From Escherichia coli (lineage in GTDB: Bacteria; Pseudomonadota; Gammaproteobacteria; Enterobacterales; Enterobacteriaceae), in the NCBI RefSeq assembly GCF_003334385.1, contig NZ_QOWN01000034.1: DNA of 47,554 bases; one strand, written 5' to 3'. This document shows, piece by piece, positions 9,008-28,370 of this stretch (position 1 is its first letter; the number at the start of each line of letters is the position of its first letter). The notes beneath the pieces were generated by a model that searched no databases, was not told the origin of the DNA, and saw only the letters and a list, made by a program, of their open reading frames with translations. The translations under genes were made by a program, and so were the position numbers.

Positions 9008-9784
9008 ATGCTGATTCTTATTTCACCTGCGAAAACGCTTGATTACCAAAGCCCGTTGACCACCACGCGCTATACGCTGCCGGAGCTGTTAGACAATTCC
9101 CAGCAGTTGATCCATGAAGCGCGGAAACTGACGCCTCCGCAGATTAGCACGCTGATGCGCATCAGCGACAAACTGGCGGGTATCAACGCCGCTCGCTTTC
9201 ATGACTGGCAGCCAGATTTCACGCCGGAGAATGCCCGCCAGGCGATTCTGGCGTTTAAAGGTGATGTCTACACCGGCTTGCAGGCCGAAACTTTCAGCGA
9301 AGACAATTTCGATTTTGCCCAACAGCATTTGCGAATGCTTTCCGGCTTGTATGGCGTACTGCGCCCGCTCGATTTAATGCAGCCTTATCGTCTGGAAATG
9401 GGGATCCGTCTTGAGAATGCCCGAGGGAAAGATCTGTATCAATTCTGGGGAGATATCATCACCAACAAGCTGAACGAGGCGCTCGCAGCACAAGGCGATA
9501 ATGTGGTGATTAATCTGGCGTCAGATGAGTATTTTAAATCGGTGAAGCCGAAGAAATTGAATGCCGAGATTATCAAGCCGGTGTTCCTCGATGAGAAGAA
9601 CGGCAAATTTAAGATCATCAGCTTCTACGCTAAGAAAGCACGCGGTCTGATGAGTCGTTTTATTATTGAAAATCGGCTGACCAAACCAGAGCAACTGACT
9701 GGTTTTAATAGCGAAGGTTACTTCTTTGATGAAGCTTCCTCCAGCAATGGAGAACTGGTGTTTAAACGCTACGAGCAGCGTTAA
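9008..9784 (+). CDS. yaaA: Peroxide stress resistance protein YaaA (DUF328), 258 aa
   Basis: [28 protein letters not shown]..., matches YaaA/UPF0246. Confidence 0.9.
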
Positions 9785-9794
9785 GTTTGCAGTC

Positions 9795-9930
9795 AATGCC
9801 GGATGCGGCGTGAACGCCTTATCCGGCCTACAAAAGCATGCAGATTCAATATATTGCAGAATTCACGTAGGCCTGATAAGACGCGCCAGCGTCGCATCAG
9901 GCGCTGAATGCCGGATTGTTACCCGGCATT
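9795..9930. repeat. REP elements (BIME) between yaaA and yaaX
   Basis: GCCGGATGCGGCGTGAACGCCTTATCCGGCCTAC and inverted GTAGGCCTGATAAGACGCGCCAGCGTCGCATCAGGC palindromic units. Confidence 0.85.
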
Positions 9931-9936
9931 TGTCAT

Positions 9937-10233
9937 TTAGCGGTGATGTTTGCCTGGACCATGACCGCCGTGATGATCATGATGAGCTTTCTTATGGTGA
10001 CGCGGCGGTGGCGGCGGTCCGTGTGGGTGCCAGCGATTGCCTCGCCATTCATAATGTTGTTTCCACCAGCCGTGGTCGCGCCAGTGACCTCCATCCCAGT
10101 AATAGCCACGATTATCACGATCGCCTATCTGTAATTTTACTGACGGGACTAACGTAATTTCCGCAGCCTGTGCTGCCATGGGAGCGACCAGAACCAGGGA
10201 AAGTGCGAGTACGATAGATTGCATCTTTTTCAC
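9937..10233 (-). CDS. yaaX: YaaX (DUF2502), small secreted His/Pro-rich protein, 98 aa
   Basis: Signal peptide [23 protein letters not shown] followed by a His/Trp/Pro-rich tail. Confidence 0.8.
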
Positions 10234-10389
10234 AGGTTACTCCTTTTATCATTGCCCGTTATGGGTCGATATCCGGAGATTACGCGATGAGAACGGCGGT
10301 TGTTATTCTCCGCAATCCTAATCTCTAAGTTACCGCATTTATTGAGAATTTCTCCTTTTTCCCTGTCGTTTTTCTCCATAATTTCTTCA

Positions 10390-10426
10390 TAAAAAAGCCG
10401 GGCTGCATAAAAGCAAACCCGGCCTG
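10390..10426 (-). terminator. thr operon rho-independent terminator
   Basis: GCCGGGTTTGCTTTTATGCAGCCCGGC hairpin followed by a U-run on the minus-strand transcript, 20 bp downstream of the thrC stop. Confidence 0.7.
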
Positions 10427-10446
10427 ATTGAGATAATGAATAGATT

Positions 10447-11733
10447 TTACTGATGATTCATCATCAATTTACGCAACGCAGCAAAATCGGCGGGCAGATT
10501 ATGTGAAAGCAAGGGTAAATCAGCACGTTCTGCCAGCTCTTTTGGCAGATCCAACGTTTCACCGAGAATCGCTTCCACGCTCTCTTTAAATTTCGCCGGA
10601 TGCGCGGTGCCGAGGAACAAGCCATATTCGCCTGGATTCAACTGGTCACGCAGCGCACGATACGCTACGGCAGCGTGCGGCTCCGAAGTGTAGCCCAGTT
10701 CTTTTAACTCACGCATTGTCTGTTGCGTGGTTTCATCATCCACGGCTGCATAACCCAGCTCTTTCAGTTGCCAGATTTTGCGGCGGAACAACTCTTCCAC
10801 ACGCGGCCAGTTGTTCGGCTGACTCACGTCCATCGCGTTGGATAACGTCGCCTGAGTCGCTTTGGGTGACCACTGACCGTCGTGCAGGAAACGTGGCACG
10901 GTATCGTTCACGTTGGTCGCAGCAATAAAACGTTTCACCGGCAGACCGAGTGACTTCGCCAGCAGACCCGCCGTCAAATCGCCGAAGTTTCCGCTTGGCA
11001 CCGAGACAACCAGCCGGTTGCGCGCTTCCTGCGGCAGCTGCGCAACTGCTTCAAAGTAGTAGCAAATCTGCGCCAGCAAACGGCTGATGTTAATCGAGTT
11101 AGCTGAGTTTAACCCCAGCGCCACTTTCAGCTCTTCATCATCAAACGCCTGCTTCACCAGCGCCTGACAGGCATCGAAATCGCCGTCGATGGCAACAGTT
11201 TCGATATTGCCGCCCAATGTACAGAACAGTTTTTCTTGCAGTGGACTGATTTTGCCTCGTGGATAGAGGATAACCACTTTCACATTCGGTAAACCGTAGA
11301 AAGCATGAGCCACTGCCGCTCCGGTATCACCGGAGGTCGCGGTCAGAATGGTCACTGGCTTATCGCCCGCAATATGGGTCAGCATTTGTGCCATAAAGCG
11401 ACCGCCGAAATCTTTAAATGCCAGCGTTGGCCCGTGGAACAATTCCAGACAACCGACATCGCTTTCAACATTGGCGACCGGAGCCGGGAAGGCAAACGCC
11501 GCGCGCACGCGCTCTTCCAGGATTTCCTGCGGGATTTCATCACCAATAAACGCCGAGAGGATCTTCGCACTGCGGGTGACAAAATCCAGCTTCAGCATCT
11601 CATCAATTTCAGTCAGGCTGAATTCCGGCAGGTCGTGCGGAAAAAACAGCCCCTGATTTTTGCCCAACCCCTGGGTTACGGCTTGCGCAAAGCTGACCTG
11701 CTCATTGTGATCTTTCAGATTGTAGAGTTTCAT
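10447..11733 (-). CDS. thrC: Threonine synthase, 428 aa
   Basis: MKLYNLKDHNEQVSFAQAVTQGLGKNQGLFFP...; last gene of thrLABC. Confidence 0.97.
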   Translation of the reverse strand: MKLYNLKDHNEQVSFAQAVTQGLGKNQGLFFPHDLPEFSLTEIDEMLKLDFVTRSAKILSAFIGDEIPQEILEERVRAAFAFPAPVANVESDVGCLELFHGPTLAFKDFGGRFMAQMLTHIAGDKPVTILTATSGDTGAAVAHAFYGLPNVKVVILYPRGKISPLQEKLFCTLGGNIETVAIDGDFDACQALVKQAFDDEELKVALGLNSANSINISRLLAQICYYFEAVAQLPQEARNRLVVSVPSGNFGDLTAGLLAKSLGLPVKRFIAATNVNDTVPRFLHDGQWSPKATQATLSNAMDVSQPNNWPRVEELFRRKIWQLKELGYAAVDDETTQQTMRELKELGYTSEPHAAVAYRALRDQLNPGEYGLFLGTAHPAKFKESVEAILGETLDLPKELAERADLPLLSHNLPADFAALRKLMMNHQ

Positions 11734-15154: not shown

Positions 15155-15192
15155 CGAAAAAAAAAGCCCGCACTGTCAGGTGCGGGCTTTTT
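15155..15192 (-). terminator. thr leader attenuator terminator
   Basis: AAAGCCCGCACCTGACAGTGCGGGCTTTTTTTTT on the minus strand, directly after the thrL stop and before thrA. Confidence 0.85.
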
Positions 15193-15211
15193 TCTGTGTT
15201 TCCTGTACGCG

Positions 15212-15280
<69 letters not shown>

Positions 15281-23360: not shown

Positions 23361-23894
<534 letters not shown>

Positions 23895-23975
23895 GACGGA
23901 TAAGGCGTTCACGCCGCATCCGGCATTCGGTGCACGATGCCTGATGCGACGCTGCCGCGTCTTATCAGGCCTACA
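23895..23975. repeat. REP pair between yjjX and trpR
   Basis: GGATAAGGCGTTCACGCCGCATCCGGCA and GCCTGATGCGACGCTGCCGCGTCTTATCAGGCCTAC. Confidence 0.85.
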
Positions 23976-28220: not shown

Positions 28221-28370
28221 GCCGGATGCGGCGTGAACGCCTTATCCGGCCTACAAACCAAGAAATTTCAATACGTTGTGAATCTCCAGGCCTGATAAGA
28301 CGCGGTAAGCGTCGCATCAGGCATTGAGCACCGAATGCCGGATACGGCGTGAACGCCTTTTCCGGCCTAC
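28221..28370. repeat. REP cluster (three palindromic units) between ettA and nadR
   Basis: GCCGGATGCGGCGTGAACGCCTTATCCGGCCTAC, inverted AGGCCTGATAAGACGCGGTAAGCGTCGCATCAGGC, then GCCGGATACGGCGTGAACGCCTTTTCCGGCCTAC. Confidence 0.85.

Follow-up and report, generated by a model that had tools for sequence, protein, structure and literature searches.

The ORF at positions 9937-10233 of the window, the 47,554-nt stretch of E. coli DNA analyzed here, is the real and conserved gene yaaX (b0005). Its product is a predicted exported protein made of two parts, a small conserved core and a variable His-rich tail. In our best explanation, to which we give about an even chance, YaaX is a periplasmic, non-enzymatic binding or buffering protein made under envelope stress, in which the His-rich tail would be the working arm and the core would be a docking module. 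The gene, the DUF2502 family and membership of the Rcs regulon were all already known. Added here are the division into core and tail, the keeping of tail composition despite fast allele change, the lack of a fold relative outside the family and an upstream architecture shared with the paralog ypeC.

The gene and its neighborhood comprise the following features.

9937-10233, minus strand: yaaX coding sequence, 98 codons plus TAA (9937-9939), with a GTG start (10231-10233)
10240-10245, minus strand: Shine-Dalgarno sequence AAGGAG, 6 nt upstream of the yaaX GTG, read from the sequence
10447-11733, minus strand: thrC, from the ORF list of the window
minus strand: thrB, from the ORF list of the window
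9008-9784, plus strand: yaaA, convergent with yaaX
plus strand: yaaJ, from the ORF list of the window
15157-15276: thr leader, Rfam match

The window corresponds to the start of the E. coli chromosome in reverse orientation. On the K-12 gene map yaaX is number five, and practically all E. coli genomes contain it. Translation of the ORF from the minus strand, a strand that the original prediction had not named, matched exactly the peptide quoted in it. In many E. coli genomes an annotated yaaX was 100% identical to the ORF, which also matched DUF2502, so the gene name given in that prediction was right. Around the ORF, an 801-nt stretch likewise occurred at 100% identity in many E. coli chromosomes, with the annotation "yaaX: DUF2502 domain-containing protein". 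This 801-nt query matched a median of 39 places per genome because of copies of the REP element. With the coding sequence alone as query, there was exactly one copy of yaaX in 5425 of the 5426 complete E. coli genomes. The order thrC-yaaX-yaaA was also found in Enterobacter, Salmonella, Citrobacter and Kosakonia, which with E. coli makes five genera. As is required of an ortholog, the gene here is a single-copy chromosomal gene between thrC and the convergent yaaA. The sequence AAGGAGT was invariant upstream of yaaX in alignments of the five genera. Pfam DUF2502 (PF10697) matched YaaX with an i-Evalue of 1.6e-13 and 51.1 bits, over model positions 1-89 of 90. The original prediction had named lack of expression of the ORF as a possible objection. 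According to a review, both nascent-chain profiling and Ribo-seq show ribosomes pausing in yaaX in a proline-related manner (PMC13410324); the ORF is therefore translated. The gene is also listed in a transposon-screen table, in which its entry is uninformative.

Within the protein, the following segments were distinguished.

10165-10233, minus strand: predicted signal peptide, residues 1-23, by inspection of n, h and c regions, with cleavage before A24
10024-10164, minus strand: DUF2502 core, residues 24-70 (47 residues), from alignments, AlphaFold2 and dN
9940-10023, minus strand: variable, predicted disordered His-rich tail, residues 71-98, from pLDDT and alignments, with 10 His in 28 residues
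10003-10017, minus strand: PPPPP run, residues 73-77 (CCG CCG CCA CCG CCG), a ribosome-pausing polyproline read from the sequence

YaaX is predicted to be an exported protein of the Sec/SPase I type. The n-region is MKKMQS, the 14-residue h-region has a mean Kyte-Doolittle value of 2.66 and the cleavage motif is AQA|A, a layout that agrees with the signal peptide of the original prediction. The arrangement ...VAPxAxQA|xEITL was kept in aligned orthologs. Inspection of the whole protein revealed no Cys and no twin-arginine motif; lacking Cys, YaaX has no lipobox. By inspection, then, YaaX has a charged n-region, an h-region within the 10-15 residues usual for such substrates and A-x-A at -3/-1, and neither a lipobox Cys nor a twin-Arg. 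A literature search for the localisation of YaaX (P75616, b0005) found no report. Removal of the signal peptide would leave a mature protein of 75 residues from the 98-residue precursor.

The original prediction described the mature protein as a single tail dominated by His, Trp, Gly, Pro, Arg and Tyr. The composition agreed in part. His made up 18.7% of mature YaaX, 8.3 times its share in the long ORFs of the window (binomial P = 1.4e-9), and Trp 8.0%, or 7.0 times that share (P = 2e-4); Gly stood at 14.7% and Pro at 10.7%. Arg and Tyr, and likewise Asp and Lys, were not significantly enriched over the long ORFs of the window. Cys, Phe and Met were absent from mature YaaX, which is very hydrophilic (mean Kyte-Doolittle value -1.78). 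The description as one unit did not hold, since conservation and AlphaFold2 divided the protein into two parts. Trp, Tyr, Arg and part of the Gly lie in the folded core; the variable tail has the remaining Gly and the greater part of the His and Pro. The suggestion that YaaX is not an enzyme fits a mature protein of 75 residues without a match to any catalytic family.

Residues 24-70, the core, are under strong purifying selection. About 85% of the synonymous sites in the core differed between E. coli and the other genera, against 7-14% of the non-synonymous sites. Over the 47-codon core dN was 0.06-0.16 with synonymous sites saturated, and dN/dS was 0.02-0.13 where dS could be estimated. We used two alignments, A1 of 22 orthologs and A2 of 57 family members. 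Across both, G37, G43 and W46 were invariant in the DUF2502 family, and P30, D40, Y45, D47, G48, W51 and W57 were conserved at 90% or more. The core consensus was IGDRD-x-RG-x-YWDG-xx-WRD-xx-WW...YEWRGNRW. YaaX shows the layout of the family, a signal peptide followed by P-x-V-x-L-x-IGDRD-x-x-G-x-YWDG-x-x-WRD-x-x-WW. The idea that the segment YEWRGNRW is a degenerate second copy of YYWDGGHW was not supported, as the HMM of the first motif scored it at 2.5 bits, a value reached by 34 of 300 shuffled sequences.

AlphaFold2 predicted with high confidence that the core consists of two short beta-hairpins and one short helix. With either alignment the model showed short strands around DGGH, where the chain turns, then a helix (residues 54-60) and a hairpin (residues 61-70). 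The mean pLDDT per 10-residue block was 87-95 over mature residues 11-50, which are precursor residues 34-73. In the searches made, the modelled core has no structural relative outside the DUF2502 family. A profile search of PDB sequences with YaaX gave no match even at E = 10, and Foldseek gave none when the full-length YaaX model was compared with the PDB. Fold searches returned no structural match to WW-domain, Trp-zipper-like or cell-wall-binding-repeat folds. No Pfam family other than DUF2502 matched YaaX, and the NCBIfam scan gave sub-threshold matches only, all at the signal peptide region. All 50 matches listed in a search of AFDB50 were enterobacterial, 45 of them annotated DUF2502, and these matches therefore offered no lead to another family. 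As the confidently modelled core is very small, missing fold matches are weak evidence for a truly new fold.

The tail, by contrast, changes very fast. It is 36% His, with HH, HxH and HHDHH patterns, and its block-mean pLDDT in the AlphaFold2 model was 45-65. In A1 the tails varied in both sequence and length and could not be aligned between genera. Even within E. coli, the K-12-like allele and that of strain 83972 differed at 29 of 84 nucleotides and 13 of 28 residues of the tail; across the signal peptide and core the same two alleles differed at only 3 of 210 nucleotides, with no change of residue. A gapped alignment of the two tails contained several small indels plus substitutions. Tail sequence and length drift freely, with a composition of His, Asp, Arg, Gly and Pro that is kept across the family. 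Among 46 intact representatives of 50%-identity clusters the median His content of the tail was 18%, and 35 of the tails reached 10% or more. Pooled tails of intact family members contained 24% H, 16% D, 14% R, 13% G and 9% P. From its sequence, its pLDDT and the composition across the family, the YaaX tail can be read as a clustered-His flexible segment maintained by selection.

The polyproline run in the tail is variable. Escherichia-like sequences have five to six Pro here, the second E. coli allele, a common one, reads PPSP, and Salmonella, Enterobacter and Kosakonia lack the run. Motifs of the form PPP-R-[W/H]-H recurred in eight distant DUF2502 representatives. YaaX has at least three consecutive Pro together with a pause observed in the literature and is thus a candidate member of the EF-P-dependent polyproline proteins.

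DUF2502 is a small family, since among 1.84 billion representative proteins only 121 relatives came out of a profile search at E ≤ 0.001. Its members are mainly Enterobacterales among the AFDB50 matches listed. The usual layout is a signal peptide, a P-G-V-S-L-x-IGDRD strand, one or two copies of RG-x-YWDG-xx-WRD-xx-WW and a low-complexity tail. YaaX has all of the invariant family residues. In distant members the core motif may be repeated in tandem (19 of 235 sequences), or the protein may terminate in CPPGQAKKGNC (10 representatives), whereas YaaX has one clear copy and the YEWRGNRW hairpin. A Pfam scan of a relative with the CPPGQAKKGNC end found nothing besides DUF2502. The distant members stood in unrelated contexts (beside mntH, beside fklB, beside DUF1684 and fliL), all as stand-alone genes, and neighborhood comparison found no conserved metal or envelope partner genes near them.

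E. coli itself has a second member, YpeC (b2390), which over residues 4-71 shares 60% identity with YaaX (E = 1e-30). YpeC shares the signal peptide and core layout, with YEWRKNRW as second hairpin. Like yaaX, ypeC is a stand-alone gene followed by REP elements, is Rcs-dependent and has an upstream motif of the same spacing. YpeC differs from YaaX in its longer tail, which is rich in Arg, Gly, Trp, Tyr and Asp, contains 5 His in 39 residues and has no polyproline. Its gene is located between yfeO and mntH and, unlike yaaX, is a MarA/SoxS target (PMC5684230).

Several DNA elements flank yaaX.

10388-10428, minus strand: thrC intrinsic terminator, a stem followed by U6, with an RNA fold of -20 kcal/mol (z = -4.2)
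10270-10395, minus strand: conserved upstream block, putatively regulatory, with TTAGGA at 10316-10321, CGTAAT with the -10-like TAATCT at 10277-10284 and a non-conserved spacer between
9908-9929, minus strand: hairpin AUGCCGGGU/AUCCGGCAU, 8 nt after the yaaX stop, without a U-tract (-15.1 kcal/mol, z = -3.3)
9798-9902, strand not assigned: inverted REP pair between the convergent yaaX and yaaA, from RNA fold and repeat matches

Because a strong terminator follows thrC, yaaX needs its own promoter. A consensus scan for sigma-70 promoters and terminators over 9780-10460 gave nothing on the yaaX strand; the scan overlooked the thrC terminator owing to its long loop, and RNA folding recovered it. 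The thrC-yaaX intergenic region contained long invariant runs across the five genera, though synonymous sites in yaaX are saturated. A 49-residue ORF at 10230-10379 on the minus strand was rejected as the cause of this conservation, as the Salmonella sequence at this place reads ATG TAG and that of Citrobacter lacks an ATG. Since the ORF is not kept as such in other genera, the upstream constraint is regulatory rather than coding. Upstream of yaaX in the five genera and of ypeC in E. coli, the motif TTARGA-N31-CGTAAT occurred at a distance of 88-91 nt from the start codon. Its 31-nt gap includes a non-conserved stretch, as expected of a promoter spacer. Read in this way, the motif would correspond to an activator site of the half-site type near -50 together with a -10-like TAATCT or TAATAT, and we infer a candidate promoter here.

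The RcsB box TN[GA]GAN4TC[CT]NA, a consensus taken from PMC7913699, was absent at up to two mismatches from both strands of the 228-nt stretch scanned, which ran from the thrC stop codon through the 213-nt intergenic region to 12 nt into yaaX. The conserved, half-site-like TTAGGA was the only element upstream of yaaX that resembled an RcsB box. As no full box is present upstream, control of yaaX by Rcs could be indirect or could act via a non-canonical site. Likewise, no RcsAB box at up to five mismatches and no marbox at up to three was found upstream of yaaX. On the other side of the gene, the 146-nt 3' region (9795-9940), including the short post-stop hairpin, folded at -64.6 kcal/mol (z = -6.25). 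The REP pair forms the long hairpin of this region, and Rfam ES036 matched at 9832-9874.

The original prediction had suggested an envelope interaction from composition. The envelope link is supported instead by published regulation. In one study yaaX is in the RcsB regulon list, with a tabulated value on RcsB activation of only 1.9, which is a counterpoint to a role in the Rcs response (PMC2731931). Colicin M induced yaaX with log2 ratios of 1.59 and 4.12, and the gene was named among those regulated by Rcs (PMC3599342). A LolCDE inhibitor raised yaaX 8-12-fold, in a paper that also labels yaaX "RpoS stress induced" (PMC5105897). Relatives behave in the same way. The promoter of SMDB11_2817, a DUF2502 gene of Serratia marcescens, was up several log10-fold in a gumB mutant, and rcsB was required (PMC8470065). 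Expression of ypeC was down 23.7-fold in rcsB-disrupted O157:H7 (PMC5343319). Under the LolCDE inhibitor ypeC was up 42-60-fold. As yaaX, ypeC and the Serratia homolog are all Rcs-dependent, Rcs control looks like a property of the family.

The role that we propose begins with envelope damage, which would induce the Rcs response and lead to export of YaaX to the periplasm. There YaaX would serve, not as an enzyme, but as a small protein that binds or buffers. Its working arm would be the His-rich tail, most likely chelating divalent transition metals (Zn, Ni or Cu), or alternatively serving as a pH-titratable polycation, and the Trp/Arg/Asp core may dock onto an envelope component. This explanation is preferred because the protein is small, unlike catalytic families, predicted to be exported and made on envelope damage, and because it joins a compact aromatic and charged module to a flexible arm that selection keeps rich in His, Asp and Arg. 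Metal binding by the tail, raised already in the original prediction, is plausible from its composition. In its favor, His-richness is a trait of the tails across the family; against it, metal genes are not conserved as neighbors of yaaX-family genes. The less His-rich tail of YpeC suggests that metal chelation may not be the common function of the family. In LB-grown cusS mutants yaaX and zraP changed together (PMC10920338), a weak hint of a connection with metals.

The core could also be the active part. YaaX would then be a glycan or cell-wall binder whose hairpins stack on sugars of peptidoglycan, colanic acid, ECA or LPS, with the tail as a flexible charged linker. The residues conserved in the family are aromatic, Gly and charged and lie in short hairpins, a pattern typical of carbohydrate-binding repeats. 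The tandem core motif in the 19 distant sequences also recalls binding repeats, which often occur in this form. Damage to peptidoglycan or LPS calls up the Rcs regulon, which in turn drives the synthesis of colanic acid (PMC2731931, PMC3599342), as would suit a binder of these sugars. However, the core has no fold or sequence similarity to known carbohydrate-binding modules, and a linker role leaves the His-rich composition of the tails across the family unexplained, so that we regard glycan binding as possible but not probable. A periplasmic stress chaperone or anti-aggregation protein, like Spy or ZraP in role and not in ancestry, with a tail that keeps damaged envelope proteins soluble, is unlikely. 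The co-induction of yaaX with spy, degP and other envelope-stress genes would suit such a protein, as would its small, abundant-type, disordered and charged character, but there was no homology to Spy, CpxP or ZraP, the sole NCBIfam match to Spy being the signal peptide (E = 0.11, residues 1-28), and the very hydrophilic mature protein has no evident client-binding surface.

Enterobacterales is the order that has the Rcs system, and a family found mainly there, again among the AFDB50 matches listed, could act on that system. As a feedback modulator YaaX would bind a periplasmic Rcs component (RcsF or IgaA) or another sensor and so adjust the envelope-stress response. The Rcs dependence of the three family members tested in the literature and the upstream architecture common to yaaX and ypeC agree with this, yet some members stand in gene contexts that do not look enterobacterial, and we think such feedback quite improbable. 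The PPPPP run with the ribosome pause observed there raises the idea that the stall is the main function and that yaaX is an EF-P-dependent translational sensor or attenuator. This very improbable idea is largely refuted by the lack of conservation of PPPPP, which is limited to Escherichia-like sequences and replaced by PPSP in a common E. coli allele. Strong purifying selection on the protein core also speaks against it, and as yaaA is convergent, no downstream gene is co-transcribed with yaaX. The odd composition and the GTG start could in themselves suggest a spurious or non-functional ORF. We give this almost no credence: the Shine-Dalgarno sequence, the Pfam match, the synteny, a dN far below dS, the presence in 5425 of 5426 genomes, the regulated transcription and the ribosome pause rule it out.

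Returning to the binding or buffering protein that we prefer, a bolder form of it can be put forward as a tentative conjecture, rather doubtful as a whole. DUF2502 would be a structurally orphan, disulfide-free Trp/Arg/Asp mini-domain, mainly of Enterobacterales, joined to a fast-evolving His arm. Its members would form a new class of Rcs-deployed periplasmic protectants that, where the envelope is damaged, act as a buffer for transition metals or as a sensor of periplasmic pH, and yaaX and ypeC would be redundant and share a non-canonical RcsB-dependent promoter design. Both genes are among those induced by Rcs and may contribute to surviving antibiotic, lipoprotein-trafficking or peptidoglycan damage. 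The split into core and tail makes the question of function approachable with simple constructs. An answer would add one stress protein to those annotated, and perhaps a small fold not seen before, rather than a new principle.

YaaX resembles the His-rich metal-binding stress proteins and tails (ZraP, the N-terminus of ZinT, the tails of SlyD and HypB, and Hpn) in having a flexible segment where His residues are densely set among Asp, Gly and Lys. ZraP and ZinT are periplasmic, as YaaX is predicted to be. No sequence or fold relation to these proteins was found, and YaaX differs from them in that its known input is Rcs, with no Zur, Fur or NikR-type regulation reported. The core recalls tryptophan zippers, WW domains and choline or cell-wall-binding repeats, which are also short disulfide-free hairpins with Trp on both strands and a Gly turn (WDGGHW and WRGNRW in YaaX). 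With no fold or Pfam match, the resemblance to such aromatic beta-hairpin modules is one of principle only. The Rcs-regulon envelope proteins Bdm, YmgD/YmgG, OsmB, Ivy, YaiY and Spy have no homology to YaaX and carry neither a Trp-rich core nor a His-rich tail, but like YaaX they are small, mostly exported or membrane-bound, co-induced in the same experiments and made on envelope damage.

The thrC–yaaX intergenic region (window 10270–10395, − strand) was aligned across five genera and contains long runs that are invariant in all of them. In contrast, the synonymous sites of yaaX are saturated among these five genera. TTARGA-N31-CGTAAT occurs with equal spacing upstream of yaaX and upstream of its E. 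coli paralog ypeC (positions 1587–1700 of L013, the ypeC region including mntH). No full RcsB box was found in the thrC–yaaX intergenic region. A 49-codon ORF (window 10230–10379, − strand) lies across the start of yaaX and the sequence upstream of it. As its sequence reads ATG TAG in Salmonella and lacks the ATG in Citrobacter, the ORF is not conserved there and is probably not a gene.

REP elements lie on the other side of yaaX, and matches to a REP-derived RNA lie elsewhere in the window. Folding and Rfam searches gave the following features (window coordinates).

9798–9902, between yaaX and yaaA: inverted REP pair forming a long hairpin (RNA folding)
9832–9874, + strand: borderline ES036 (CssrF) match in the yaaX–yaaA REP pair (Rfam, 38.8 bits; threshold 37.6)
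41403–42087: array of eight tandem naRNA4 copies (CssrE, REP-derived), about 101 nt apart (Rfam)
23894–23971 and 28289–28367: two solitary naRNA4 copies (Rfam)
1300–1377, − strand: tpke11 sRNA (Rfam, 69.6 bits)
15157–15276, − strand: threonine operon leader (Rfam, 122.1 bits)

Both tpke11 and the threonine operon leader are expected in this E. coli region. The 146-nt yaaX 3′ region including the inverted REP pair folds at −64.6 kcal/mol.

Each E. coli DUF2502 gene is convergent to one metal or oxidative-stress gene, with REP elements in between. The partner of yaaX is yaaA, encoding a peroxide stress protein (window 9008–9784, + strand), and that of ypeC is mntH, encoding an Nramp Mn/Fe importer (L013 2168–3406). 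Since neighbours of that kind were not found beside the distant DUF2502 family members examined, the convergence may be coincidence.

The tail of yaaX varies within E. coli. Between the K-12-like allele (window 9940–10023, − strand) and a second allele from strain 83972 (L014 511–594), the tail DNA differs at 29 of 84 nt and carries several small indels; the remainder of the gene differs at 3 of 210 nt. In about 1387 of 5425 E. coli genomes the yaaX CDS falls in the 90–95% identity band. Slippage, recombination or diversifying selection may underlie this variation. Some E. coli-derived YaaX variants have truncated or frameshifted ends after the core: P0114 (81 aa) runs into REP-like sequence beyond residue 52, and P0019 (109 aa) shifts frame at the polyproline run. 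Both variants fit slippage-prone repeats in the tail DNA.

Among the DUF2502 tails gathered from databases, 59 of 201 are rich in Ile, Thr, Ala, Met and Val and not in His (P0126, P0127, P0136, P0143, P0151, P0162, P0178, P0179, P0194 and others). These tails resemble His/Asp codon runs read in a shifted frame, so they probably stem from pseudogenes or from mistakes in sequencing or assembly.

A regular expression for RG-x-YWDG-xx-WRD-xx-WW detected a tandem pair in 19 of the 235 family sequences (P0143, P0148, P0150, P0155–P0157, P0180 and others), so the core unit is a module able to duplicate. Ten distant representatives (P0152, P0167, P0176, P0192, P0195, P0202, P0213, P0217, P0221 and P0231) share a conserved C-terminal end, CPPGQAKKG-x-C, which YaaX lacks. 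DUF2502 was the sole match in a Pfam scan of one of them, P0176. PPGxAKK-type motifs may also be present in other small, CigR/RcnB-like periplasmic proteins.
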